Shown: positions 4,507 through 62,693, counted from the first letter of the stretch. The stretch is 64,000 nucleotides of DNA from an uncultured virus (IMG/VR IMGVR_UViG_3300042292_001068) (IMGVR_UViG_3300042292_001068); one strand, 5' to 3'. Notes: generated by a model from the letters alone, not told the origin. A program made the numbers and translations.

Positions 4507-5972
4507 TGGAAGAAAATATACAGAAAATATTAAATGAAAAAGACGAAAATGTAGTTCAGTTCAATGTAACTAACACTACATCAAGTCCTGTATTTATAGA
4601 TTTATTTGATAGTGCTAATTTAAGTCCTGTTGCTAATTCTGTGGTTTATTCAAGTTTGCCTAATACACCAACTTCAAGTTTTGGAACATTAGCGTATCAA
4701 TATCTCTCAATTAATCCTAATAATGGATATTTATATGCTACTGATGGTAGTAATTTATGTCAAGTATTTGATACTAATAATGGGAATGTACTTGTTACGA
4801 ATATAATTTTTCCAACGGCAAGTGTTATTCAATCCTGCTATAATTCTATTGACAATACTTTATATTTTGTGGATAGTTTTGGTTTTATTTATGTTGTAAA
4901 TGCTAACACAAATGCAATAACCACAACTATACCCTATACAGGTGGTGCTAATGCTATACTATATATTCCGAATACTAATTCTATATATTTATCAATAACT
5001 TTAAGTACAATTCGTATTAATTGTTCTACAAACACAATATCGCCAACAACATTATTGCCATACGATGATTTTGCTTTTAATTCAACAAATGGATTAGTTT
5101 ATGCAGTTGAAAATTCTTTTGGAACATTTGTAGTAATAAATCCTTTTACTGATATAATAATACAAACGATATTCATAAGTACCGCTACTACAATAGGTAT
5201 TAATTCAAACATCAATACTCCCTATGCTTATATTTCAGATATTATAACAGGCGATATTTATATTTATAATTGGAACACAGGAAATTCATTTTTTGGCACT
5301 TTAATTCCGAGTGTTGGAAATATAGGAAGAAGCGTTTATGATTCGTTTACAAACAGGGTTTATTTTGGAACAAACACAGGTAATTTATTGATTATTAATT
5401 CAGACAATACATTTCAAACATCTTTTATTTCTTTATCCTTCTTATTGACAGAGGTAATAAATCCTAATCTAAATTTATTATATACTGCTACTCCATTTAC
5501 GAATAACATATTTCAAATTACAACATTAGGAATAACTGCAACACCTTATTATATTTCGGGTTCAGCAAATTATAATGCTTTTGTAAATAACTTGAATAAT
5601 GAACCTGTGTTTATTCAGATGATTAGATTGCTTGTTCAAAATCAAAATCAACTTACAAATGAATTACAATTAACTACGATTGATTCAAATGGTAATCAGA
5701 TATTTATGCCGAATTTCCCTATTAATGAAGTTAGTGCATATCAGCAACAAGGAAACATAGGTGAAATAACATTAAAAGATATTGTTTTCGATGGTAGAAC
5801 ATACATTAATCAATATCAATTAAACCCGAATGAATCGTTGTCATTTGAAATATATTACAAGCAATTAAATTTGCCTTCTGCAACACCTACATACCCTATA
5901 TTCTTCAAGCCGAAAGTTCAATTAAAAGAGTATATTAGAAAAGATTATTCAAATTATGATGTTGAAATGTAA
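4506..5972 (+). CDS. Paralogous spike-like protein with a YVTN/YncE-like beta-propeller and no delta-60 insert
   Basis: Shared termini (VVQFN..N.TSSPV.IDLFD; FFKPKVQLKEYIRKDY.NYDVEM); YNS..N.LY repeats; TAATG overlap with the preceding gene. Confidence 0.65.
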   Translation: MEENIQKILNEKDENVVQFNVTNTTSSPVFIDLFDSANLSPVANSVVYSSLPNTPTSSFGTLAYQYLSINPNNGYLYATDGSNLCQVFDTNNGNVLVTNIIFPTASVIQSCYNSIDNTLYFVDSFGFIYVVNANTNAITTTIPYTGGANAILYIPNTNSIYLSITLSTIRINCSTNTISPTTLLPYDDFAFNSTNGLVYAVENSFGTFVVINPFTDIIIQTIFISTATTIGINSNINTPYAYISDIITGDIYIYNWNTGNSFFGTLIPSVGNIGRSVYDSFTNRVYFGTNTGNLLIINSDNTFQTSFISLSFLLTEVINPNLNLLYTATPFTNNIFQITTLGITATPYYISGSANYNAFVNNLNNEPVFIQMIRLLVQNQNQLTNELQLTTIDSNGNQIFMPNFPINEVSAYQQQGNIGEITLKDIVFDGRTYINQYQLNPNESLSFEIYYKQLNLPSATPTYPIFFKPKVQLKEYIRKDYSNYDVEM

Positions 5973-8584
5973 TGGAAGAAAATGTTCAAGAATTATTAAA
6001 AGACAAAAATGAAGATATAGTTCAATTCAATTTTGAGAACAATACTTCAAGTCCTGTGGCGATTGATTTATTCGATACGGCATCTTTATTAACTATTCCT
6101 ACAAGTGGAAATACAACAAATACATATAGTTCATCTACCGATTTAATACCTTCTTTACCACCAAGTATTTTTTCTTTCAATCCTACAAATGGATTGATAA
6201 TATCAACAGACCCAACTACCGAAGAAATTAGATTAGTAGATACAATTAATAATACCACTCCAAATAATTTTGATAACACTCTTGGATTTGATTCAGCCGT
6301 AACAACATTGGTTATTCAACCCGATGGTAAAATGCTCGTTGGTGGTCAATTTATATTTTACAAAACATTTTCTAATAATCGTATTATTCGATTAAATTCA
6401 GATGGAACAAAAGATTTGACATTTGATAATTCTATCGGTTTTAATGGTCAATTAGCAGGAATGGTATTACAACCCGATGGAAAAATAATTTGTGGTGGTT
6501 TTTTTACAACATACAAAGGTGTATCTGAAAATAGAATAATCCGATTAAATTCAGATGGAACAAAAGATTTGACATTTGATAATTCTATTGGTTTTGATAA
6601 TGGTGTAGATATTATAGAAATACAACCCGATGGAAAAATACTTGTCGGTGGTGCATTTACAACATACAAAGGATTAGCAGAAGTTAGAATTATTCGATTA
6701 AATTCAGATGGAACAAAAGATTTAACATTTGATAATTCTATTGGATTTACAGGTGGTAATGTTCTTGAAATTAAAATACAATCAGATGGAAAAATACTTG
6801 TTGGTGGTACTTTTACATCATACAAAGGATTAACAGAAAATTATATAATTCGATTAAATTCAGATGGAACAAAAGATTTAACATTTGATAACTCTATCGG
6901 TTTTGATTTGAATGTTAATACAATTACAATTCAATCCGATGGAAAAATACTTGTTGGTGGATTATTTACAACATACAAAGGATTAACTGAAAATCGTATT
7001 ATTCGATTAAATTCAGATGGTTCAAAAGATTTGACATTTGATAATTCTATCGGTTTTGGTATTGGAGTTGTTGGATTACAAAAAGTATTATTACAACCCG
7101 ATGGTAAAATAGTATGTGGTGGTTCATTTACAACATACAAAGGATTAACATATCGAAGAATAATTCGATTAAATACAGATGGTAGTATTGACATAACATT
7201 TAATCCTGCATTTGGCTATCAAGGTGGTTCAGTTAATGATATTTCATTATTGAATGATGGAAGTTTAATTATGGTTGGTTTTTTCGATTCATTTAATAAT
7301 TTCCTAAATGCAAGAATATCAAAATTAGATTCCAACGGAAATTCACAAGCAATTTTACAAACAGGTAACAAAAATCGTGATTTAGCATATTGTTCATCAA
7401 ATAATAGATTTTACCTATCTCCAACAACTAATTATAAAGCAAATATAATTTCGGGAAATGGTGATTTTCTTATTGGCACTCCCATTACATTACCTACTTT
7501 CGATACAAGAAGTTATTCTATTGAATATAATGTGAATAATAATAATATGTATTATTTATGTAAGGATATTGTTTTATTAAATTCTTTTATCACCATTGTT
7601 GATTGTTCAATAGATACGATTATATCAACAATACCATTACCTAATTATGATATTTCTTATGCCTTATCAAATTTAACATTATTAAATACGATGTATTTTT
7701 TTGATAATACAACAGGATTTCTTCAAAAAATAGATTGTGTTAGTAATACATTGGTTTTAATTAATTTATCATTACCAAATATCACATCAAACATATCTTC
7801 ATTAAATTATAATTCAACAAATGGATTGCTTTATATAATGACTTCAAATAGTGGTGTAATTGATGTTATTGATACGAATACAGATACATATTTAACTTCA
7901 ATTACAATACCTTCTACATATTCATTTCAGTCGAATAGTTCAGCAATAAATCCTTTAACTAACGAATTATTCATTACTGATGCAAATGTCATAAATCCTA
8001 AACAATTCGCAGTAATTAATCTAAATAATAATTCGCTTGTTTCGGTAAATTCAATGGGTGGTATTGGTGCAACATACGGAGTGATATATAATTCATTGAC
8101 AAACTCAATGTATATTAGTGGTTCATTGTTCTCTGTTGTTACATTTAATGCTACCCCATTCTTTATTGGTGGTTCAACGAATTATAACACATTCGTAAAT
8201 AACCTAAATTTTGAACCTGTAATGATTCAAGAAATTAGGATATTAACTCAAAATCAAACGCAATTATACAACCAAGTTCAGTTTACAAAAATTGATTCAA
8301 ATGGTAATCAGATATTCTTTCCCGAATTTCCAATTACAAAAGTTGATTCTTTTCAAGCACAAGGTAATATCGCAGGATTAAAATTAAATGGTTTAGTTTT
8401 CGATGGTCGTACATACATAAATCAATATGTAATTAACCCAAGTCAAATTGTTAGTTTTGAAATAATATACAAGCAATTAGACAGGTTTAGTGCGACACCT
8501 ACTTTCCCTATATTCTTTAAGCCGAAAATTCAGTTAAAAGAATATATTAGAAAAGATTACAATAATTATGATGTCGAAATGTGA
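5972..8584 (+). CDS. Third paralogous spike-like protein with 7 delta-60 repeats
   Basis: Same architecture as 1957-4506. Confidence 0.7.
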   Translation: MEENVQELLKDKNEDIVQFNFENNTSSPVAIDLFDTASLLTIPTSGNTTNTYSSSTDLIPSLPPSIFSFNPTNGLIISTDPTTEEIRLVDTINNTTPNNFDNTLGFDSAVTTLVIQPDGKMLVGGQFIFYKTFSNNRIIRLNSDGTKDLTFDNSIGFNGQLAGMVLQPDGKIICGGFFTTYKGVSENRIIRLNSDGTKDLTFDNSIGFDNGVDIIEIQPDGKILVGGAFTTYKGLAEVRIIRLNSDGTKDLTFDNSIGFTGGNVLEIKIQSDGKILVGGTFTSYKGLTENYIIRLNSDGTKDLTFDNSIGFDLNVNTITIQSDGKILVGGLFTTYKGLTENRIIRLNSDGSKDLTFDNSIGFGIGVVGLQKVLLQPDGKIVCGGSFTTYKGLTYRRIIRLNTDGSIDITFNPAFGYQGGSVNDISLLNDGSLIMVGFFDSFNNFLNARISKLDSNGNSQAILQTGNKNRDLAYCSSNNRFYLSPTTNYKANIISGNGDFLIGTPITLPTFDTRSYSIEYNVNNNNMYYLCKDIVLLNSFITIVDCSIDTIISTIPLPNYDISYALSNLTLLNTMYFFDNTTGFLQKIDCVSNTLVLINLSLPNITSNISSLNYNSTNGLLYIMTSNSGVIDVIDTNTDTYLTSITIPSTYSFQSNSSAINPLTNELFITDANVINPKQFAVINLNNNSLVSVNSMGGIGATYGVIYNSLTNSMYISGSLFSVVTFNATPFFIGGSTNYNTFVNNLNFEPVMIQEIRILTQNQTQLYNQVQFTKIDSNGNQIFFPEFPITKVDSFQAQGNIAGLKLNGLVFDGRTYINQYVINPSQIVSFEIIYKQLDRFSATPTFPIFFKPKIQLKEYIRKDYNNYDVEM
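6265..7335 (+). repeat. Coding tandem repeat of about 153 bp (delta-60 units)
   Basis: Recurrent cgattaaattcagatggaacaaaagatttgacatttgataattctat. Confidence 0.85.
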
Positions 8585-22042: not shown

Positions 22043-22432
22043 ATGGACATATTCGAGGATTTTTTAGGTTCAGAAAACCGAAATGTAAACAATGATTACA
22101 TTTACCCAAAAGCAGGGATAAATGCAAATCGTTATGTTAAAAAAGCAATTCAAGAATTTAGAAGATTGCCTAATAATGTGAAAGAGCAAAAACCTTTGCT
22201 TTATTGGTTACTTGGTTCGGGAACGCCACCATATAAAATGTCAAAGAAAGATAGCGATTATCAAGGTAAACCTTATCGTGGACAAAATTGTGGTAATTGT
22301 AGATTTACATTTATGCGTTGGGTAAATAAAGAGTTAATATGTTCTCAAATTCAAGGGAATATAGAACTTGACCATTGGTGTAAATTATGGGTTGGTAGTG
22401 ATAATGTTATCCCACCACCTAACAAGGATTAA
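22043..22432 (+). CDS. HiPIP-like 4-Cys domain protein
   Basis: YQGKP..GQNCGNCRF...CSQIQG.IE..HWCKLW. Confidence 0.55.
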   Translation: MDIFEDFLGSENRNVNNDYIYPKAGINANRYVKKAIQEFRRLPNNVKEQKPLLYWLLGSGTPPYKMSKKDSDYQGKPYRGQNCGNCRFTFMRWVNKELICSQIQGNIELDHWCKLWVGSDNVIPPPNKD

Positions 22433-34977: not shown

Positions 34978-35064
34978 AAAATAATTCTTTCAAAAAAAAA
35001 TAATTGTTAAAAAAAAAATAATTAACAAATGAATGTGCGTTACCAAGTCGCACCCCTTGTTTAT

Positions 35065-38459: not shown

Positions 38460-38475
38460 TTTCTTTTTATTAAAA

Positions 38476-38500
38476 ATGGGGGCAAATAAATGCCCCCCAT
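38476..38500. other. GC hairpin (GGGGGCAAATAAAT class)
   Basis: atgggggc-aaataaat-gccccccat; similar at 44148-44176. Confidence 0.6.
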
Positions 38501-39172: not shown

Positions 39173-39204
39173 TGGGGGCAACGATACCCTGCCCCCTTTG
39201 GGTT
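39173..39204 (-). ncRNA. Intergenic pseudoknot-like element, copy 1
   Basis: ACCC aaa GGGGGCA GGGT atcgt TGCCCCC. Confidence 0.6.
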
Positions 39205-39735
39205 TTATTTGCTCGGACTTAAAATCGTGTAAATCTTCTCAAAAATTAAAGGAAGAATTTCTTGATTAATTTGTTTCGCCCAATCTTCGTTCTTAATTAA
39301 TTCAGCACAAGGATTAGTTGTTACATTACAACCACCTTTACCAAACATCCCTGCACTTTCTTTAAGCATATAAAATGACTTAAATAATTCACTTAATTGC
39401 CACCCTTCTTTTTCTGTAAATGTGGTTTCAAATAAAAGTGGTGCATCAAATATGTTGTGAACATAATCTGTATTGATAGTGCATTTTTTATCGAAGTCAT
39501 ATTTTTTCATCTGCCCCATAAATGAACTATCAATATGTTGGTGAGAATTAATGTCTTTTGATAAATGTGGGTTTTTATTATTCGTGTATGTTTCAACATA
39601 ACCGAATCCCCAATACCATCCACAATCCCATCTTGATTCTTCTAACCAATAATTAGTGCCATCTTCATCACGACCTAATAAATAGATTTTTTTACCAAAT
39701 GCTTCGTTTGTTTTTTTGCTAATCTGTCTTTTCAT
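39205..39735 (-). CDS. Conserved phage hypothetical protein
   Basis: WDCGWYWGFGY motif; start revised to MKRQIS. Confidence 0.6.
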   Translation of the reverse strand: MKRQISKKTNEAFGKKIYLLGRDEDGTNYWLEESRWDCGWYWGFGYVETYTNNKNPHLSKDINSHQHIDSSFMGQMKKYDFDKKCTINTDYVHNIFDAPLLFETTFTEKEGWQLSELFKSFYMLKESAGMFGKGGCNVTTNPCAELIKNEDWAKQINQEILPLIFEKIYTILSPSK

Positions 39736-39762
39736 TTTCTGAAAATTTAAAATAAAATAATT

Positions 39763-39791
39763 AGTGCAATTCACCCTGCACAATTTGGGTT
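39763..39791 (-). ncRNA. Intergenic pseudoknot-like element, copy 2
   Basis: ACCC aaatt GTGCA GGGT gaat TGCAC. Confidence 0.6.
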
Positions 39792-40021
39792 TATAATAAT
39801 GTTACTTTGGTTAAATTAATTACTTCGGGAACACCCCTTTTACGACCTTCTCTTTTAACACTTACTTTAAGTCCGTAATAATTTTCAGTTTTTATTTTAC
39901 GCCCTAATTTAGATGCAAGGGAAGTTAAATCAATATCTAATTGTGGGGAATAAAATACTTGCCCCTCTTTTCCATTTAGAATCATATAAGATTCATACGA
40001 TGGTCTGATTGTTCCTTTCAT
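39791..40021 (-). CDS. Hypothetical protein
   Basis: ORF in array. Confidence 0.5.
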   Translation of the reverse strand: MKGTIRPSYESYMILNGKEGQVFYSPQLDIDLTSLASKLGRKIKTENYYGLKVSVKREGRKRGVPEVINLTKVTLL

Positions 40022-40047
40022 TTTATTAATTATTTAATTTAAAAAAT

Positions 40048-40073
40048 AGGGGCAATTTCCTGCCCCTTTTAGA
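40048..40073 (-). ncRNA. Intergenic pseudoknot-like element, copy 3
   Basis: TCT aaaa GGGGCA GGA aat TGCCCC. Confidence 0.55.
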
Positions 40074-41978
40074 TTATCTACTAATTGTACTTATAACATT
40101 GGTTTTAGTACCCTTAAATTCCTTGTGTGCTTTAATTGTCGCATTAAATTCAACTATGCTACCAATCTCAACTTCTGCGTGATTGCTGATTAAAAATCTT
40201 TCGGGAATATCTCCGAATTTTGAGAATAAATTACCCTTATCATCAACCATTTCAAATAGCGTGGTATCTCCGTAAGATGTATTCATTTCTTTCATCATTA
40301 CGATTGTTAATTTGGCTCTATATTTTTCACCTACAATACCAACAAATGCACCCTCTTTAATTTCAATGTCATTCTCTTTACTTTCGTGGTCTGAATAAGC
40401 ATCAAAATCTGTAACAAATCCAAGTACGCTTTTTGCTCTCGTATAAGCCACATACATTAAGTTTTTTTCCTGTGCCTGTTCCCAATCTTTTTTAGCGTGT
40501 TTAGATGGCATTAATTCCGAATGAATAATAAATACTCTATCGGCTTCTAATCCTTTGCTTTTGTGAATTGTAGATAAACAAATTCCATCTGAATCATCCG
40601 AGAAAATGATTTTTAATTTTGCAATTAAATCATCCCCTGTTAAACAACCATTAGAAAGTGTTTCAAGTGTTGAAATTTTATCAGTATAAGAAATAACCAA
40701 AGTATTTTCATTTGCTTCTTGCTCTGTGCATTTTTCTTTGTTCATTATATTTTTTACTAATTTATTTTTCTCTTTATAAATTCGTGCAAATATATTTTCA
40801 CAAGAAAATTCTTCTGTTTTTCTTCGACAACTTTCAATCATTGTAATTAATGATGCAGAAATATCTGTACCCATTACATACGCTTTAACACCCTTTGATA
40901 AATACTTCATACAAAGTGCGACAAGGGGCATTGTATTTCTACATATAACCATATCACCTTTTACGATATTTTTATAGGAAAAATTATTATCAATTAATCC
41001 TTTTTTAGCGTTAGGACTTGCTTCGATTGTAGGCATTAATTTTTTCGCAAAATCAATAATATCTGAACCACATCTATAACATACTGAAAGTGGTAATGTA
41101 ATTGTATTTTCAATATCAATTAATTTTTGGAAAGAATCTGAATCAGCACCACTAAAACCATAAATCGCTTGTGCAGGGTCGCCTACGGCAATAAATCGCC
41201 CTGTATCGGGTTTAATTGCTTTCTTCATTAATTCTCTTTGACAAGCGTTTAAATCTTGACATTCATCAATGAAAACAATATCGTATTTAGTCGTCTGCAA
41301 ATTCAAATGATTCGGTAAAAATACCATATCTGTAAAATCTGCTTTTTGCGTAAAAGAAGCACCCAAAATAATTAATAACCAAGCACGATAACATTCACCA
41401 TTAATTATTTCAACATTGTGTTTAATTGATATTTCTCTTAATTGCTCAATACCTAAATCTTGATTTTTTAAATCAATTAAATTTAATCTACCTAAATCAC
41501 ATAATTTTTGAACCCTACCAAAATATGCAATTTTATCTTCGATTAATTCTTTTTCAGAATCATCAAAAAGAAAATTATCAACTAAATTAATTTGTGATGA
41601 TTTGAAATTATATTGCTTCAAAAAATCTAAATCCGTATGTTCTGAATACGATAAAATATCTTTCAATAATTTCTTGTACTTGTTGTTGTCAATTTCTGAC
41701 TTGTGTGATTTTGTAAGGGAAAAATATCCGTATGCGTGTAATGTACGCACTTCGATATTGGTAGCACTCTTTGGTACTCTTTCAGATAGTTCCTGTGCGA
41801 TGCTTTTATTGAACGCAAGGAATAAAACATTTAACTCCGATGGAATTAAATTAAGGGCATTAATTAAGGTTGTAGTTTTACCACTTCCTGCTACGGCAGA
41901 AACTACTGCGTTGCCTTGTCCTGTGGTAATAAAATCATAAATCCCTTGTTGATAAACGGAAGGTTGAAACTTGCTCAT
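40074..41978 (-). CDS. UvrD/Rep-like SF1 helicase with C-terminal OB-fold-like extension
   Basis: AVAGSGKTT, IDECQD, VGDPAQAIYGFSGA, YRC, STIHKSKGLE, YVAYTRAK. Confidence 0.9.
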   Translation of the reverse strand: MSKFQPSVYQQGIYDFITTGQGNAVVSAVAGSGKTTTLINALNLIPSELNVLFLAFNKSIAQELSERVPKSATNIEVRTLHAYGYFSLTKSHKSEIDNNKYKKLLKDILSYSEHTDLDFLKQYNFKSSQINLVDNFLFDDSEKELIEDKIAYFGRVQKLCDLGRLNLIDLKNQDLGIEQLREISIKHNVEIINGECYRAWLLIILGASFTQKADFTDMVFLPNHLNLQTTKYDIVFIDECQDLNACQRELMKKAIKPDTGRFIAVGDPAQAIYGFSGADSDSFQKLIDIENTITLPLSVCYRCGSDIIDFAKKLMPTIEASPNAKKGLIDNNFSYKNIVKGDMVICRNTMPLVALCMKYLSKGVKAYVMGTDISASLITMIESCRRKTEEFSCENIFARIYKEKNKLVKNIMNKEKCTEQEANENTLVISYTDKISTLETLSNGCLTGDDLIAKLKIIFSDDSDGICLSTIHKSKGLEADRVFIIHSELMPSKHAKKDWEQAQEKNLMYVAYTRAKSVLGFVTDFDAYSDHESKENDIEIKEGAFVGIVGEKYRAKLTIVMMKEMNTSYGDTTLFEMVDDKGNLFSKFGDIPERFLISNHAEVEIGSIVEFNATIKAHKEFKGTKTNVISTISR

Positions 41979-42004
41979 AATTGAAACAATTTAATTTAAA
42001 ATGA

Positions 42005-42034
42005 AGGGGGCAATATCCTGCCCCCATTTAGGTT
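42005..42034 (-). ncRNA. Intergenic pseudoknot-like element, copy 4
   Basis: ACCT aaat GGGGGCA GGAT at TGCCCCC. Confidence 0.55.
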
Positions 42035-42040
42035 AGTTAT

Positions 42041-42280
42041 TTATTTTGTTGATTGCAATTTATTAATTGAATCTAATTTTGCTAATAATGTTTTTCGATA
42101 TAATTCTTCGTTGAAGTGTCCATTCCTTGTCCACCATTCCAAAGCAAATTTTTTATTCCACCATTCTGTGTCATAATAAATGGAATTAATTAAATTACTT
42201 TTTGATGAAACATATTTAATTTTTGGCATAGTCAATTCTACGCTTGGTAAACTTGGTAAAATAGTTTTAACATTCTTCAT
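42041..42280 (-). CDS. Hypothetical protein
   Basis: Start revised to MKNVKT. Confidence 0.45.
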   Translation of the reverse strand: MKNVKTILPSLPSVELTMPKIKYVSSKSNLINSIYYDTEWWNKKFALEWWTRNGHFNEELYRKTLLAKLDSINKLQSTK

Positions 42281-42689
42281 CTTCGTCTGTTTTATGATAA
42301 TCTTCCCAATAAGTAATTGCATCTTCTTCATTCACAAATAAAGTATCAGTATTATCATCGCCTTCATCTTCTTCGCATTGATGAAGTGTAAAAGAATCAA
42401 ATAAATCTTCTGTGAATATTGTTTCTTGTGTAGGTGAAGAATGTTGCCAAACAGAATAAATTTCTACATTATCCATTAATGGGCAATATCCGTGTGCATC
42501 TAAATAATCACAATCGTAATCAAAACCAACGCTATCTGTATATTCAATAGGCGTTAATTTTTCATTAGCAATTTGTTCTGCTTCGTATTCAGATTCGGCA
42601 TAAATTTCAACGCCTACTTCGACTACGAATTGTTTTCTAACGCTAAATTTTTTAAGCGTTTTAATTTCCAAAATGTTTGGCTTGTTCAT
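42267..42689 (-). CDS. Highly acidic hypothetical protein
   Basis: D/E-rich ORF. Confidence 0.55.
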   Translation of the reverse strand: MNKPNILEIKTLKKFSVRKQFVVEVGVEIYAESEYEAEQIANEKLTPIEYTDSVGFDYDCDYLDAHGYCPLMDNVEIYSVWQHSSPTQETIFTEDLFDSFTLHQCEEDEGDDNTDTLFVNEEDAITYWEDYHKTDEDEEC

Positions 42690-42710
42690 TTGATTTAAAA
42701 TTTAATTGTA

Positions 42711-42737
42711 GAGCAATTAACCCTGCTCATTTAGGTT
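42711..42737 (-). ncRNA. Intergenic pseudoknot-like element, copy 5
   Basis: ACCT aaat GAGCA GGGT taat TGCTC. Confidence 0.6.
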
Positions 42738-42749
42738 TATTTTATTTGT

Positions 42750-42792
42750 TGTAGTGGGGGGAATCGAACCCCCCATTTAAACCATTCTACAT
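42750..42792 (-). ncRNA. Minimal tRNA-like element (closing stem plus T-arm), copy A
   Basis: TGTAG AATGGTTTAAAT GGGGGG TTCGATT CCCCCC A CTACA. Confidence 0.6.
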
Positions 42793-42800
42793 AATTGATT

Positions 42801-43541
42801 TTATTCTTCGGAATTATCGTCTGAATTATCTTCGGATTTAAAATTGTGGTAATTTTTAATTATGTCCTCAATATCACTTGTATTATAATCAAACTCATTT
42901 TTAAATGTTGTACGAAATTCATCAGAATCTATCGTAACATCTGTTACCTCAATTTTTTTGTATGAATCCATTTCGCACTCAAAATCTTCAATTTGTGTAA
43001 ATGAAATAGTAGTGTCAATATTCCTTACAGATGTATCAACAATTTCTGTAATTAATTCAAACAATTCTCTTGTCATTAATTTAACTAATAATATTGTTTC
43101 TGTGGTATTTCTATTTTGGTTAATCCATTGTAAAAACCTATCGTATTCAAATGAAAAGTTAGAACAGAAATAATCGCTTATATCAAGCGTTACATTTTCT
43201 AATTCAACTTCGCAAGAATAATTAATTCTTAAATCATAATCGTCAATTTCGCCACTACCACTAAATGTTTGGGTGCGAAAATATTCAGCACCACAATCAG
43301 TAATAAATTCATCAATTAAATCAATCAATGAATCAATCATTTCTTGCGTAATTGTTTCATCTGAATTTCCTTCTTGCATTTTAATTTTAAGCAAATCAAA
43401 TTCATTAATTAATTTTTCCAATTCGGAACGCAAAGAATTAATTTCATTCGTTGAATTGTTGTTCAATGCTTCTTCCGTGTTGTTCATACGAATTACAAGT
43501 GCATTAATCTTGTCCTCTAAATTTTGAAATTGTGTGTTCAT
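42801..43541 (-). CDS. Acidic protein with N-terminal coiled coil and an internal duplication
   Basis: IDDYDLRINYSCEVELENVTLD versus IEDFECEMDSYKKIEVTDVTID. Confidence 0.55.
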   Translation of the reverse strand: MNTQFQNLEDKINALVIRMNNTEEALNNNSTNEINSLRSELEKLINEFDLLKIKMQEGNSDETITQEMIDSLIDLIDEFITDCGAEYFRTQTFSGSGEIDDYDLRINYSCEVELENVTLDISDYFCSNFSFEYDRFLQWINQNRNTTETILLVKLMTRELFELITEIVDTSVRNIDTTISFTQIEDFECEMDSYKKIEVTDVTIDSDEFRTTFKNEFDYNTSDIEDIIKNYHNFKSEDNSDDNSEE

Positions 43542-43574
43542 TTTGTTTTTTAATTTAATTTAATTTAATTTAAG

Positions 43575-43607
43575 TGGGGGCAATTAAACCCTGCCCCCTT
43601 TTAGGTG
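43575..43607 (-). ncRNA. Intergenic pseudoknot-like element, copy 6
   Basis: ACCT aaaa GGGGGCA GGGT ttaat TGCCCCC. Confidence 0.6.
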
Positions 43608-43615
43608 TATAAAAA

Positions 43616-44041
43616 TTATCCGTAAATCACTTCTTTATATAAAGCGTATTGTAATGCGTTGAAACAATCCCACGCATCGGTAGAACAATTATCATCATCA
43701 ATTAATTTTGCCAAATCAATTTTTTCTTCATCGTTTAATGAATTGAAATTAATTAGTGCATCATCTAATTTTAATTCAATTAATTCTTCGCCCTCATAAT
43801 CGGTGAAAATAATTGCATCGCCATTTTTTAGAATTTCAATGTAAACATCTTCTAAACATATAGAAGTAATTCCCCTTTCCTTTAAACGAGTTTTTGCGTT
43901 GGCATAATTAATTTCATTAGGGATATTTTCATTCGCCCAATCAATAGAAACCGAACAATTATATAGTTCGATTAATCCACCATTACAGAATGAATCGTAA
44001 AGAATCTTTTCTGCATCTTCTTTTGAAAATTCAATTTTCAT
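43616..44041 (-). CDS. Acidic hypothetical protein, first gene of the early block
   Basis: Ends DA.DC...LQYALY.EVIYG, a common phage early-gene motif. Confidence 0.6.
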   Translation of the reverse strand: MKIEFSKEDAEKILYDSFCNGGLIELYNCSVSIDWANENIPNEINYANAKTRLKERGITSICLEDVYIEILKNGDAIIFTDYEGEELIELKLDDALINFNSLNDEEKIDLAKLIDDDNCSTDAWDCFNALQYALYKEVIYG

Positions 44042-44070
44042 TTTAATTTAATTTAAGTTAAAAAAATAAT

Positions 44071-44096
44071 GAGCAAATAACCCTTGCTCGTTGGGT
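44071..44096 (-). ncRNA. Intergenic pseudoknot-like element, copy 7
   Basis: ACCC aac GAGCAA GGGT tat TTGCTC. Confidence 0.6.
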
Positions 44097-44101
44097 ATAG
44101 T

Positions 44102-44140
44102 AATGTGTAAGGAATCGAACCTTAAATAACCATTCACATT
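44102..44140 (-). ncRNA. Minimal tRNA-like element, copy B
   Basis: AATGTG AATGGTTATT TAAGG TTCGATT CCTTA CACATT. Confidence 0.6.
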
Positions 44141-44332
44141 TTAAATAAAAGGGGGCAAATAAATTCGCCCCCCTTTAATGTCTTTTTATTTCTCAATCTT
44201 TCAATGGGAAAACGACCATTATTTTTATGTATTCAAATAACTACCCATTGTCTAACTGCCTGTCGCCCTTTAACAGATATAATCAATCCAACACGCATCG
44301 CCTTTAATAATTGACTTTCGTTTAATTCTCCA

Positions 44333-44413
44333 TAAGCCATTTCACAATTTCTACTTTAAATTAAATTACTAATCTTTCAACCATTCCTATATTAAGCCAT
44401 TTCACAATTTCTA
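44333..44413. repeat. Perfect 21 bp direct repeat, 2 copies, 60 bp period
   Basis: taagccatttcacaatttcta at 44333-44353 and 44393-44413. Confidence 0.85.
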
Positions 44414-44670
44414 ATATCTGTTTGAATTTACTCACTAATTCTATTTGACCTGCGATACCTCAAAGAACATTTAAGCCGAAGCCGAGTGAATTTACCCTTG
44501 TGTTTGAATTTTCGCTTAACCATCCTACGACTTCCACATCATCGGCAATAGGTGTGCGATTTACCATATTAAAGTGCGACCTCTAATACCCTCACGCTTT
44601 CCGTTTAAGTTACTCTATCCATTCACAGGGGGGCAAGGAATCACGCCTTGTTGTACCCCTTTCAGTCCAT

Positions 44671-44679
44671 TCAAAGAAC
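44671..44679 (-). promoter_or_regulatory. boxA-like antitermination site (second copy at 44460-44468)
   Basis: GTTCTTTGA on the minus strand, about 25 nt downstream of the -7 box. Confidence 0.45.
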
Positions 44680-44703
44680 GCTTTCGTGGTTGAACTGATA
44701 GAG

Positions 44704-44711
44704 CAAATGTA
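44704..44711 (-). promoter_or_regulatory. Bacteroidota-type -7 box, likely major early promoter
   Basis: TACATTTG on the minus strand at the head of the long leader. Confidence 0.55.
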
Positions 44712-44839
44712 GGGGTATAATTGGAACTACCAAAATTATTTTTAAAGATAATCGTGTAAATGTTGTTAATAACTCAATCAAACCCAATAAAATCAAGGGT
44801 TCACATTGTTAATAACTTATATGAAATTTGTTGATTTTA

Positions 44840-59077: not shown

Positions 59078-59536
59078 TTATTTTATTGTGTTAAAGATTG
59101 CACGAATTTCCCTGCCCAATTCCATATCGTTTCCGTATTTCTTTACTAAACAATTAATCATAACTAATGACAATGTTTTTTCATCTTTTGTCAAATCCTC
59201 TATTCTTGTTTTATCGCCTGTTAAAGCAGATAAATTAGCAGTAGTGAAATCACTAAACATTCCGATTGAACAATTATGCTCTGAAAGAAAAATTCTTAAT
59301 TTATCTATGGTTGTTATTCCTACAACACGATGTTCTAATAATTCATTTTCCGTTTTTTGAAGCAAATGAAAGAAGTTTTCGTAAGCGTAACTAAACTTCC
59401 AAAACAGGTTGTCGTAACTAAATTCTGAATTATGGTATTCCTCATTACCTAATGAAGATTTAAGAAATTCAAGCGATATATTATTTTCAGAAATAATCTC
59501 CTTCAAACTTGAATTGTTCGGTAAGTGATTTGTCAT
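59078..59536 (-). CDS. Hypothetical protein
   Basis: C-terminal KY.NDMELGREIR. Confidence 0.55.
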   Translation of the reverse strand: MTNHLPNNSSLKEIISENNISLEFLKSSLGNEEYHNSEFSYDNLFWKFSYAYENFFHLLQKTENELLEHRVVGITTIDKLRIFLSEHNCSIGMFSDFTTANLSALTGDKTRIEDLTKDEKTLSLVMINCLVKKYGNDMELGREIRAIFNTIK

Positions 59537-60188: not shown

Positions 60189-60763
60189 CCCTATCAATAC
60201 TAATTTGTTCTGTTGAAACAGAAGAAAGACAGGAGAAATTAAAGAAATTGATTTATGAATTGCATAGACAAATATCAAAAAATTATGCCGAAGAAATTGT
60301 GGAGATAATTGTTGATACCGACAATATGAATAAATCAGTAGGAAAAAAAAGAAATGATTTAATTGAAAAATCGCAAGGGGAATTTATTTGTTTTATTGAT
60401 GATGATGATTTTGTTTCTGAAAATTATTTAAGCATAATACTACATCACTTAAATTCGGGAATTGATATTCTTTTAATTGGTATAGACCACATAAAAAATG
60501 GTGTTAATGAAATTAAAATACTACCATCGCTTTATATAGATAATTTAATAACAAATGAAGCAGTATTTAGAACAAATCATTTTCATTTATGCCCCCACAA
60601 AAAATCAATAGCAAAGAATGTATTATTTGAATGTATTAATTTCGCAGAAGATATGCTTTACTCACAGAATATGGTTAAGCACATAAATAATTCATTTATT
60701 ATATATGAACCTATTTATATTTACTTTGATAACCTTGAAAAAAGTTTAACACGAAATGTTTAG
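60179..60763 (+). CDS. Glycosyltransferase family 2
   Basis: LSILICS, G.KRN.L, FIDDDD, ED. Confidence 0.8.
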   Translation: MEITLSILICSVETEERQEKLKKLIYELHRQISKNYAEEIVEIIVDTDNMNKSVGKKRNDLIEKSQGEFICFIDDDDFVSENYLSIILHHLNSGIDILLIGIDHIKNGVNEIKILPSLYIDNLITNEAVFRTNHFHLCPHKKSIAKNVLFECINFAEDMLYSQNMVKHINNSFIIYEPIYIYFDNLEKSLTRNV

Positions 60764-61250
60764 TATTATTCCAAATCTGAATAACAATTTTTATAATTGG
60801 TTCGGTGAAAGCAAAATAGTTGATACAAATAATCAGCCAATGATAATGTATCACAAATCAAGATGCAAAGAATTATTTAATGAATTTAAGTTAGATGATA
60901 CAGAAAAAAACCCCTATAATTCTGATTATGGGGTTTTCTTTGTTAATGCTCATTATTCACATAATATATCTTATATTGGCGATGGATTAGAATATTATGT
61001 ATTCTTAAAAATATTTAATCCGTTTTATATTTACGATTTTAATGGTCAGCCATACGATATGCTTGGACAAACACTTGTTTATATTGATGTCAGTAAGTCA
61101 TATTGTGATGATTTAAAATCCAAAGGATATGATGGAATAATAATTAAATCGAATCTATATAATCAATATGTTGCATTTGAGCCACATCAGATTAAAAGCG
61201 TAAATAATGATGGGAATTATAATACTGAAACAAATAACATATTTCAGTAA
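60756..61250 (+). CDS. Stand-alone ART-PolyVal-like (ADP-ribosyltransferase-fold) protein
   Basis: F.NWFG.SKIVD...P..MYH; VFL.I.NP; GYDGII; YVAF.P.QIKS..N.G. Confidence 0.65.
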   Translation: MFSIIPNLNNNFYNWFGESKIVDTNNQPMIMYHKSRCKELFNEFKLDDTEKNPYNSDYGVFFVNAHYSHNISYIGDGLEYYVFLKIFNPFYIYDFNGQPYDMLGQTLVYIDVSKSYCDDLKSKGYDGIIIKSNLYNQYVAFEPHQIKSVNNDGNYNTETNNIFQ

Positions 61251-61429
61251 TTTTTAATTTCATTTCCTTCATCATCCACAACAACGGCATATCCTAAATC
61301 TATAATTTCTTCCTGTGTAGTAGGTGTTTTTGAATTATCTGTTTTATCTGAAAAAATTTCTAAAATTAATTTTTCGGCAAGACCATCTATTAAGTCGAAC
61401 CATACACTATTACTTCTCATACTATTCAT
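61244..61429 (-). CDS. Hypothetical protein
   Basis: ORF. Confidence 0.4.
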   Translation of the reverse strand: MNSMRSNSVWFDLIDGLAEKLILEIFSDKTDNSKTPTTQEEIIDLGYAVVVDDEGNEIKNY

Positions 61430-61871
61430 TTATTAAATTCAACATTCTTTCTACTACATCTTTGCTCGTATGACCATCAAATTCATATTTCGCTTTTTCA
61501 ACTTCGGGAATTTTAAATAAATCCCAATCTTCCATTTTATAGTGATTAGTTATTTGACCACTTGGTAAAATAGCAACTACAACAAACCAACCACCACCGA
61601 AACATAATTCTCCGTTATTATGACAAATTGATTTATGAATATCGTATTTGTATGTTCTTGATACAACTTTTGCATATAGACCACCTTTATCATTTTTTGC
61701 CCATTCTTTAATTTCAGTTATATGTTTTGCCCATTCATTAAATAATAAAGCATTGTAAACTTTGCGAAATTTATAAAGTTCATCAAATGTATGGTAGCCA
61801 TCGGAAATACTACCTCGTTCATCTTTTAATCCATAAATTAATTCTTGAACTGCCTGTAATTTATTTTCCAT
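61422..61871 (-). CDS. Conserved phage protein (WDGH-like)
   Basis: ISDGYHTFDELY; GWF.V...LP.GQI..HY...WDLF; FDGHT. Confidence 0.65.
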   Translation of the reverse strand: MENKLQAVQELIYGLKDERGSISDGYHTFDELYKFRKVYNALLFNEWAKHITEIKEWAKNDKGGLYAKVVSRTYKYDIHKSICHNNGELCFGGGWFVVVAILPSGQITNHYKMEDWDLFKIPEVEKAKYEFDGHTSKDVVERMLNLINE

Positions 61872-61873
61872 AA

Positions 61874-62398
61874 TTAAAAATGATATTCAGTATTTAATAT
61901 TTCGATTGCATTTTGACAATCAACATCTGTCAATCCTAAATTTGGATTTGTACGAATAAAATTATTTCGTTGAACATATAACATATCGAAATCATCATCC
62001 AAAATAACATATTGATAATCTACACCTTTTTCTTTACGATTAAAGTTTATACCATTATCTGAATGAATATTCGTATCAATCCATTGGTTAATTTCAACAC
62101 CTCTCGGAATAGATAAATGAATTTTCTTTGTCCTATCAATATATTGGTATGCACGAATGGTAACACCCACAATTAAATCATAAAACCAAAATCCTTCTTC
62201 TTTCATAAACTCAATAGTCGTTTCTAAATCCCATTTTCTCCACGAAGAACTTAAAACAATTTTAGCACCTGTCGAATCAATAATGTGTTTCAATAATTCC
62301 TGTTTTTCATCTTCTATTTTCCATTCGCCACCAACACCCTCAATACTTTTAGGGGTAGCCAATACACCATCAATGTCTAAAAAAATATACTTTTCCAT
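61874..62398 (-). CDS. HAD-superfamily (HAD_SAK_2-type) phosphatase
   Basis: IFLDIDGVL, IVLSSSWR, RG.EI..W, YVILDDD; start revised to MEKYIF. Confidence 0.8.
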   Translation of the reverse strand: MEKYIFLDIDGVLATPKSIEGVGGEWKIEDEKQELLKHIIDSTGAKIVLSSSWRKWDLETTIEFMKEEGFWFYDLIVGVTIRAYQYIDRTKKIHLSIPRGVEINQWIDTNIHSDNGINFNRKEKGVDYQYVILDDDFDMLYVQRNNFIRTNPNLGLTDVDCQNAIEILNTEYHF

Positions 62399-62399
62399 C

Positions 62400-62693
62400 T
62401 TAATTAATTCTTTCAAAAATATGACCAATAAATTCTCCGTTTTGATAACGATAAGAACCAACATACTTGCGTTCAACTCCCATATCATTCGGTATCGGAT
62501 GACCTGTACCAAATAATTCAAAATACCTATTTTCGTATTCTTCTTCCAAAGGATAAACTAATCCCCAAATACAAGGGAGATTATTCGCATCAATATCAAC
62601 ATAAAGTAGTTGAGTATTTATAGGCATTTTAATCTCAAATCTACCAACGAAACCCCTGTCGGTAGTGCAAAATTTCCAAACTTCTTGATTCAT
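62400..62693 (-). CDS. Conserved phage hypothetical protein
   Basis: MP....L.V...PCIW..V...FGTGHP...YVGS. Confidence 0.55.
   Translation of the reverse strand: MNQEVWKFCTTDRGFVGRFEIKMPINTQLLYVDIDANNLPCIWGLVYPLEEEYENRYFELFGTGHPIPNDMGVERKYVGSYRYQNGEFIGHIFERIN

Follow-up and report, generated by a model that had tools for sequence, protein, structure and literature searches.

A 64,000-nucleotide (nt) stretch of DNA from an uncultured virus (IMG/VR IMGVR_UViG_3300042292_001068), hereafter the window, poses the question of what is formed, and what is achieved, by a short structured motif that stands seven times on its minus strand between 39174 and 44096, ahead of seven early genes. The motif reads ACCY-AAA-[5-8 bp stem]-GGGU-N(2-5)-[stem]; we refer to the main stem as S2 and to the small helix between ACCY and GGGU as S1. 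It had been described, from the sequence alone, as a covarying element resembling an H-type pseudoknot. Structured intergenic cis-acting RNAs and leader pseudoknots of phages are already known as a kind. The evidence presented here gives good support to the view that this element constitutes a lineage-specific family of H-type RNA pseudoknots, 26-31 nt in length, which form part of one long early mRNA.

The seven predicted copies were all recovered, by direct reading, by pattern matching and by two covariance models, R1 and R2 (six copies with R1 and c1 with R2). Spans are given in plus-strand coordinates, from the start of S1 to the end of S2. The top-scoring copy was c7 (39174-39203, ACCC AAA GGGGGCA GGGU AUCGU UGCCCCC; R1 E 4e-9). 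c2 (43576-43606, ACCU AAAA GGGGGCA GGGU UUAAU UGCCCCC; R1 E 2e-6) ends 34 nt before the ATG at 43541 and is followed by a leader with five UUAAA repeats, while c6 (39764-39790) reads ACCC AAAUU GUGCA GGGU GAAU UGCAC. Both c3 (42711-42736, ACCU AAAU GAGCA GGGU UAAU UGCUC) and c1 (44071-44096, ACCC AAC GAGCAA GGGU UAU UUGCUC) are preceded by a tRNA-like minihelix; c1 has an additional A-U pair, ends 29 nt before the ATG at 44041 and was found by R2 at E 0.34. c4 (42006-42033, ACCU AAAU GGGGGCA GGAU AU UGCCCCC) precedes the helicase gene and contains a C·A mismatch in S1. Finally, the S1 of c5 (40048-40074, AUCU AAA AGGGGCA GGAA AU UGCCCCU) overlaps the helicase stop codon, whose last A is the first base of the motif; an alternative fold of c5 is a GAAA tetraloop hairpin.

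A loose regular expression, GCA(A)GGR..TGC, returned nine matches on both strands of the 64 kb, seven of which are the copies; the other two, at 59115 (minus) and 22112 (plus), are without a stem. A look-alike at 22104-22129 on the plus strand (ACCC AAAA GCA GGGAUAAA UGC) has a 3-bp stem, lies within the open reading frame (ORF) 22043-22432, scores E 0.8-1.1 and is most likely a chance occurrence.

The extent of the family was assessed in relatives of the phage. Metagenomic relatives of its helicase, spanning 96% down to 50% identity, were aligned, and this alignment guided the retrieval of 80 metagenome loci, 80 IMG/VR loci and 76 genomic loci. Eight copies, one of them from the window, went into model R1, whose sole structure was the hairpin. 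R1 matched six of the seven window copies at E 4e-9 to 5e-4 and gave 45 matches at E<=1 in 0.84 Mb. Thirty-five matches at E<=0.06 fell within the 193 kb made up of the window and its close relatives (L021-L026, L030, L033, L051 and L078), all of them on the gene strand. In total, these strong copies are spread over 12 related phage contigs of lake-metagenome origin. As a chance control, 80 IMG/VR loci whose helicases are at most 52% identical yielded a single weak match (E 0.65) in 1,147,164 bases. Model R2 added weak copies supported by context, namely c1, two copies in L028 (helicase 56% identical), L033:347 and L024:5954. The covariance-model search that the original prediction had proposed therefore separates close relatives from distant ones, and we conclude that the pseudoknot family is real and is restricted to one phage lineage.

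Searches beyond this lineage returned no further members. Scanning IMG/VR for the motif as a DNA pattern returned 5 and 13 loci, roughly the number estimated for chance; among the 13, most had no extended stem, and not one of the 18 shares proteins with the early region of the window. These loci were rejected as members and left out of the covariation counts. A single-protein search of IMG/VR with the helicase gave nothing, and an alignment-based scan of the same resource gave relatives of at most 52% identity, without elements. A scan of GTDB genomes identified one close contig, L181, which has no copy of the element, and R2 found no match in the L181 genome. The best helicase relatives in GenBank, from Bacteroides phage DAC19 and Chryseobacterium phage MA9V-3, carry no element, and blastn of one element against phages produced a single match at chance level. 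The element had not been recognised as a member of a known family, and Rfam 15 is consistent with this: there were no matches at gathering score across the whole window, and the seven matches at E<=5 between 38400 and 44900 were all far below their gathering scores, with none on the motif as such. In open-access text, supplements aside, no published multi-copy pseudoknot of such kind was found in phage early operons.

S2 covaries, as had been claimed, and does so strongly. In the model-made alignment (39 rows, 36 distinct), 97.9% of S2 cells are paired and six of the seven pairs show double changes; as the alignment was fitted to the hairpin, these counts favour it. For the whole structure, 96.1% of cells are paired, compared with 83.7±0.9 after shuffling (0 of 500 shuffles reached the observed value) and 34-54% with slid partners. 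Among the raw variants of S2 are GGGGGCA, GAAAGCA, GGGAGCA, GUGCA, GAGCA, UAGACA and GGGGGUA, each accompanied by its complement. The stem comprises 5-8 bp, is G+C-rich with a conserved GCA/UGC top, and has a folding energy of -7 to -17 kcal/mol.

Support for S1, the pairing that would turn the hairpin into a pseudoknot, is moderate. When aligned by a model blind to S1, 92.9% of its cells pair; one pair is double-changed and two vary on one side. The elements were additionally parsed by script, whereby S2 was the best hairpin, the 3′ strand of S1 the first four loop bases and the 5′ strand, in whichever register paired best, four bases located 2-5 nt ahead of S2. After manual correction of five rows whose parse was wrong, there were 42 elements with 38 distinct sequences, in which 146 of 152 S1 cells are paired. 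Permutation of the 3′ tetrads with re-optimisation of the register gave a mean of 141.3±1.2, and 27 of 20000 permutations reached 146, a count that ignores relatedness and is therefore no true probability.

Individual variants illustrate the covariation. Compensated forms include AUCC/GGAU (L021:3617), ACUU/GAGU (L022:7910), GCCU/AGGC (L028:774), UACC/GGUU (L023 and L051) and ACUCU/GGAGU (L030:5062-5080, located by context and not by the model), and single changes that keep a wobble pair are seen in ACUC/GGGU (L024:7911), AUCC/GGGU (L021:3904) and GCCC/GGGU (a loose end from run X19). At the orthologous site after the helicase, the different phages carry ACCC/GGGU, ACUC/GGGU, ACUU/GAGU, AUCC/GGAU and AUCU/GGAA, a series that looks like stepwise compensation. 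The fourth position of S1 is always a pyrimidine, 20 of the 38 sequences having C there and the other 18 having U. Furthermore, G·U cells are more numerous than A·C cells in both helices (19 against 3 in S1, 6 against 1 in S2), which argues that the structure is one of sense-strand RNA and not of DNA or the opposite strand.

Several observations weigh against the crossing helix. S1 is short and mostly conserved, so that its covariation rests on about six variant lineages, and alone it is weak: with initiation included, its duplex energy is -4.2 to -0.5 kcal/mol. Three orthologues, c4, L021:1657 and L033:1903, share an internal C·A mismatch (ACCU/GGAU), and the outer pair is lost in c5 and in two other copies, the strands in question being AUCU/GGAA (c5) and UCCC/GGGU. 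Thus, of the original claims that ACCY is complementary to the loop GGGU and that c5 carries a compensatory version (UCU/GGA), the first holds with moderate support and with a mismatch in c4, while for the second the U:A pair is retained and the outer pair of AUCU/GGAA is gone. L022:7910 is able to lengthen its hairpin in place of S1. The last loop base, which is U in all 38 sequences, can pair with the first loop base, and nested folding predicts this G·U pair in competition with S1. In c4 and c5, 6-nt loops leave only 2 nt for crossing S1, and these two copies may be plain hairpins.

The geometry of the element is nevertheless feasible by the loop-length rules for H-type knots. The 4-bp S1 is formed by an ACCY lying 9-11 nt upstream of GGGU, the first loop (L1) is A-rich and 2-5 nt long (usually AAA), no bases intervene between the two helices, and the last loop (L3) is 2-5 nt (mostly 4-5) and ends in U. 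On balance we consider that the pseudoknot probably forms in copies with loops of 8-9 nt, and are less confident of it in the short-loop copies.

The position of the elements is markedly regular with respect to the downstream gene. In the window and its relatives, every one of 39 elements is followed at 17-34 nt (median 26) by an ORF starting with ATG; for the seven window copies the distance is 19-34 nt, in keeping with the prediction that all end shortly before the next ATG. The upstream spacing is looser. Most copies had been said to lie close to the preceding stop codon, and five of the six with an upstream gene do start within 9 nt of it (-1 to 9 nt for c2, c5, c6 and c7; 7 nt for c4). 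Between c3 and the preceding stop there are 64 nt, which hold a tRNA-like element, and c1 is preceded by a non-coding leader and not by the stop of a gene. Across the family, 25 of 36 elements begin -1 to 12 nt after a stop codon, and in the remaining 11 an insert lies between the stop and the element, always upstream of the latter. Thus, the element travels with the downstream leader and not with the end of the upstream gene.

The inserts are of two types. At L030:5954, L078:3786, L024:5954 and 44143-44173 the insert is a canonical hairpin and U-run terminator; elsewhere it is a tRNA-like minihelix. In the window, minihelices with a T-arm stand directly 5′ of c1 (44105-44137, minus strand, loop UUCGAUU) and of c3 (42750-42791, minus strand), and others occur in L021, L022, L023/L051, L024, L027, L030, L033 and L181. 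Common to all are a short stem resembling an acceptor stem, the conserved stretch AAUGGUUA, and a T-arm whose UUCGAUU loop is invariant and whose 5-bp stem shows double changes at three pairs across 12 copies. ARAGORN called no tRNA at the minihelices. They are found directly upstream of pseudoknots or of a gene leader, with two to three sites per phage before elements.

All seven copies appear to lie in one transcription unit. The Bacteroidota-style promoter consensus is TTTG..TAnnTTTG, and its sole minus-strand match within 33-46 kb is at 44704-44734. In a scan with this consensus alone, the minus strand had no match from 39 to 44.1 kb and none after any copy; the seven copies should therefore share one transcript, presumed to start at 44704-44734. 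The promoter belongs to a 798-nt non-coding stretch (44042-44839, minus strand) that heads the early operon and has a more G+C-rich body and a terminator-like hairpin. This hairpin, with a canonical U run, is at 44143-44173 on the minus strand and closes the non-coding leader of approximately 0.5 kb that the presumed transcript crosses first, before c1. L022, L023 and L051 keep the 798-nt stretch at 69-78%, and L030, L078 and L024 retain part of it. Nothing in Rfam matches the stretch, which may represent an undescribed non-coding RNA or a long regulatory leader.

Other structures occupy equivalent sites. The original prediction had pointed to a divergent candidate elsewhere in the window, and this proved to be real: at 35035-35059 (minus strand) lies a pseudoknot of the same topology and other sequence, CAAG GG GUGCG A CUUG GUAA CGCAC, which we term type B. 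Copies of type B are present in L022 and L027, that of L027 being immediately preceded by a tRNA-like minihelix and followed 21 nt later by an ATG, and in L028 and L024 the S1 of type B is changed to GGG/UCC. A further well-formed H-type knot, AUCGG-AA-GUUGAU-A-CCGAU-(6-7 nt)-AUCAAC, lies at L027:1021-1084 and L181:2523-2583, about 22 nt before the ATG of helicases that are 62-68% identical. As these sequence-unrelated knots of the same topology stand at equivalent leader positions, it is the fold that seems to matter and not the sequence. Unknotted structures are also found: a plain hairpin, GGGGGCA/UGCCCCC with an A/U loop and no ACCY, is the non-pseudoknot counterpart at 38472-38498 (minus strand) in the same operon. 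In L031, L060 and L029, whose helicases are about 55% identical, a terminator hairpin and then a Bacteroidota-style promoter precede nearly every early gene, and this module occupies the position of the elements.

Such surroundings speak for an element that bounds or stabilises the downstream cistron. The function we would put forward, tentatively and with rather less than even confidence, is that of a barrier or insulator pseudoknot at the cistron boundaries of a single early transcript. The proposal is based on four facts: the element keeps a fixed link with the downstream leader, its upstream partner is a terminator or a tRNA-like processing signal, unrelated knots of like topology replace it, and it lies inside one transcription unit. 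Each copy would act as the 5′ boundary module of the next gene's leader, whereby a compact knot some 17-34 nt before the start codon serves as both physical barrier and insulator. Cleavage of the long transcript would take place upstream, the tRNA-like minihelices frequently found ahead of the element being one candidate site, and the knot would bury the new 5′ end, with the four 5′-most bases tucked into the hairpin loop. The downstream cistron would thereby be shielded from 5′-end-dependent decay, and its A/U-rich leader kept free of upstream pairing, allowing initiation without a Shine-Dalgarno sequence. Weak attenuation of transcription, or 3′ protection of the upstream cistron, could be a secondary effect.

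RNase G is a 5′-end-dependent endonuclease. A preprint reports the Bacteroidetes to be without RNase J and RNase E and to possess RNase Y, RNase G and PNPase (bioRxiv 10.1101/2021.04.08.439066). On this account, and if the host is a member of the Bacteroidetes, a block of a 5′-to-3′ exonuclease in the manner of exonuclease-resistant RNAs (xrRNAs) is unlikely, which counts against a simple nuclease barrier, and the enzyme held off would have to be a 5′-end-dependent endonuclease or a 3′ exonuclease and not one like Xrn1. Two further findings tell against the boundary proposal. In L022 a plain hairpin (approximately 5940-5975) replaces the knot before the helicase, so the knot is dispensable there, and the tails that follow the stems are U-rich, as in terminators. 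A wider version, which we regard as rather unlikely, would have the early operon punctuated by RNA structure, the minihelices recruiting host tRNA-processing enzymes and the following knot blocking decay enzymes. By analogy, the knot could then be the prokaryotic equivalent of the RNAs by which eukaryotic viruses resist nucleases, at work in a phylum of hosts from which RNase J is reportedly absent, a suggestion we hold to be just as doubtful.

A possible though less than probable alternative is that the elements are leaky intrinsic terminators or attenuators, stopping a fraction of RNA polymerases at each junction and so creating a gradient of early-gene expression, with ACCY:GGGU merely tuning the speed or stability of hairpin formation. 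The G+C-rich stems, the upstream A tract and a tail with approximately 70% U at +2 to +8 after the stem, falling to about 48% at +9 to +10 (mean 5.05 U in the first 8 nt), are all as such a reading would have it. A U run of at least 4 starts within 3 nt of the stem in 14 of 38 copies, but 24 have none, and stems of 5 bp reach only approximately -7 kcal/mol. A loose terminator scan flags five of the seven window copies, the majority of elements begin close to the upstream stop, and plain hairpins with the same stem occur in the operon, one substituting at an orthologous site. Conversely, no promoter match follows any copy although the helicase and six other genes lie downstream, and hence termination cannot be efficient. 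In L030, L078 and L024 a canonical terminator stands directly before the element, which would render the latter redundant. Neither the covariation of ACCY with GGGU nor the sequence-unrelated knots at the same sites are explained by termination. As for the reverse process, antitermination, no specific support was found.

Less probable, and in our view unlikely, is a translational regulon in which a phage protein, similar to the single-stranded DNA-binding protein (SSB) gp32 of T4 or to RegA, binds the knot as an operator and spreads over the UUAAA-rich leader to shut off early genes jointly. The architecture matches that of the T4 gene 32 operator, a knot with a UUAAA/UAAA stretch reaching the ribosome-binding site (PMC535899). 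The seven element leaders contain 15 UUAAA in 181 nt (six of the seven hold 1-5) against 22 in 1107 nt for the 41 other leaders of the window. UUAAA is, however, common in those other leaders as well, and the element leaders are more A+T-rich (94% versus 82%). The conserved single-stranded AAA, the invariant U at the loop end and the GCA/UGC top look like sequence-specific contacts, yet unrelated knots and plain hairpins at the same sites argue against a sequence-specific protein. Moreover, no protein of the window was recognised as an SSB or as RNA-binding, and what lies downstream is seven different genes rather than one under autoregulation.

We regard as improbable the notion that the element mimics a tRNA acceptor/T-arm. 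S1 stacked on S2 would form a quasi-continuous helix of 9-12 bp with an unpaired A, and RNase P or another tRNA-processing enzyme would cut the AAA linker, as with the neighbouring minihelices. True T-arm minihelices do stand directly upstream at two to three sites per phage, an A directly follows S2 in 26 of 38 copies and the AAA linker is conserved; however, with an S2 of anywhere between 5 and 8 bp the stack is not fixed at 12 bp, and the element has neither a CCA end nor a T-loop.

Contigs assembled from lake water (run X7) join 39195 to 40068 and 39782 to 44091, element to element, with the intervening genes skipped. They weakly suggest that gene cassettes may be gained or lost at elements; the joints have 80% likeness in assembled contigs and may be repeats. 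Such joints, together with small early genes each flanked by copies, would suit a DNA-level element (a recombination site, cassette boundary or hairpin promoter of a phage polymerase, with the RNA fold incidental), but this is very improbable given the strand specificity of all copies, the G·U pairs that would be A·C mismatches on the other strand, the covariation of S1, the uncertain joints, the fact that no RNA polymerase gene was seen in the window, and loops of 6-10 nt compared with 3 nt in N4-type hairpin promoters. An N4-type DNA hairpin promoter as such was likewise rejected on loop size and the G·U pairs. Mimicry of Shine-Dalgarno and anti-Shine-Dalgarno sequences (ACCU resembling the 16S 3′ tail, and loop GGGU/AGGA the Shine-Dalgarno) was rejected since the variants GAGU and AGGC are less Shine-Dalgarno-like and the loop lies approximately 30-45 nt from the ATG. 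A stimulator of stop-codon read-through or frameshifting was rejected on account of leaders full of stops in all frames.

The window as a whole has 30% G+C, being A+T-rich, and its gene content is phage-like: a RecT-like protein, exonucleases, a superfamily-I helicase, a methyltransferase and many small ORFs without assigned function. GenBank phages contain no DNA nearly identical to the window. The helicase gene (40074-41978, minus strand) is nearest by tblastn to those of Bacteroides phages (42%), then of Chryseobacterium and Flavobacterium phages, and the stretch is present in lake-water metagenome runs. From this helicase kinship, the lake-water runs and the Bacteroidota-style promoter match, we infer that the window derives from an uncultured freshwater phage of a Bacteroidota-type host. 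Some helicase homologues (proteins P0032 and P0050) are about 990 amino acids long with intein and homing-endonuclease Pfam domains (PF14890, PF07591 and PF03161), and in the relatives concerned the helicase appears to be interrupted by an intein. Towards the far end of the window, Pfam matches were found to ART-PolyVal, an ADP-ribosyltransferase (60756-61250, plus strand), to the HAD domain of 'Swiss Army Knife' RNA repair proteins (61874-62521, minus strand) and to the WDGH domain (61422-61871, minus strand); these genes hint at RNA repair or modification functions in the phage.

Should both the fold and the proposed role hold, the elements would represent a new cis-acting RNA family of phages on Bacteroidota-type hosts, in which translation mostly proceeds without Shine-Dalgarno sequences and mRNA biology is poorly known. 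Many early genes would be expressed from one promoter, each with its own protected and well-defined leader, and tRNA-like processing signals would be tied to pseudoknot 'caps'. Compact insulator or stabiliser parts for engineering such bacteria would also become available. The junctions of the relatives, which carry a terminator and promoter, a plain hairpin or one of three unrelated knots, amount to a natural experiment on knot versus hairpin.

Among known systems, intrinsic terminators and intercistronic stabiliser hairpins consist of a G+C hairpin after the stop codon with an A tract and a U-rich tail, and can protect mRNA. The present element resembles an intrinsic terminator in its G+C-rich hairpin of 5-8 bp after the stop, preceded by A and followed by a U-rich tail. 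It differs in the covarying pairing of its loop to upstream bases, in its fixed distance to the next start codon, in its place inside a transcription unit without a later promoter (by the consensus scan only), and in lying downstream of the canonical terminator where both occur.

The PeSL cassettes of T4-type phages consist of an early promoter and a stem-loop (PMC2839356, PMC4122927). As with PeSL, the element is a repeated intergenic regulatory module beside variable early genes, and relatives differ in gene content there; unlike PeSL, it has no promoter match beside it and contains a pseudoknot. The T4 gene 32 operator has a 5′ pseudoknot of approximately 28 nt and an adjacent unstructured UUAAA/UAAA stretch reaching the ribosome-binding site, and the element shares with the T4/RB69 operator a small H-type knot at the 5′ edge of a phage leader followed by an A/U-rich UUAAA stretch (PMC535899). 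Here, in contrast, seven copies precede seven different genes including the helicase, rather than one SSB gene that regulates itself; the two are unlike in sequence, the window has no SSB family match, and the leader is 17-34 nt, without an evident Shine-Dalgarno sequence, as opposed to more than 40 nt.

The closest in dimensions is coremin (xrRNA-C), found in intergenic regions of plant and other RNA viruses, which has a 4-bp hairpin with a YGAD/YGNNAD loop and a conserved spacer to which three of the loop bases pair; it depends on a second hairpin, a Watson-Crick variant exists and a mechanical block has been proposed (PMC10520033; PMC10321173). Both are tiny, intergenic H-type knots whose first helix has 4 bp and directly adjoins the second. 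Coremin membership was nonetheless rejected on the loop rule, the spacer and the second hairpin alike: S1 encloses 9-11 nt (AAA and the 5′ strand of S2) where coremin has a 4-8 nt YGAD/YGNNAD loop, S2 has 5-8 bp where the second helix of coremin has 3, and a 17-34 nt A/U-rich leader follows the element in place of a conserved spacer and second hairpin. The likely host phylum is, in addition, reported to be without RNase J. By analogy with coremin, the element may itself act as a mechanical block.

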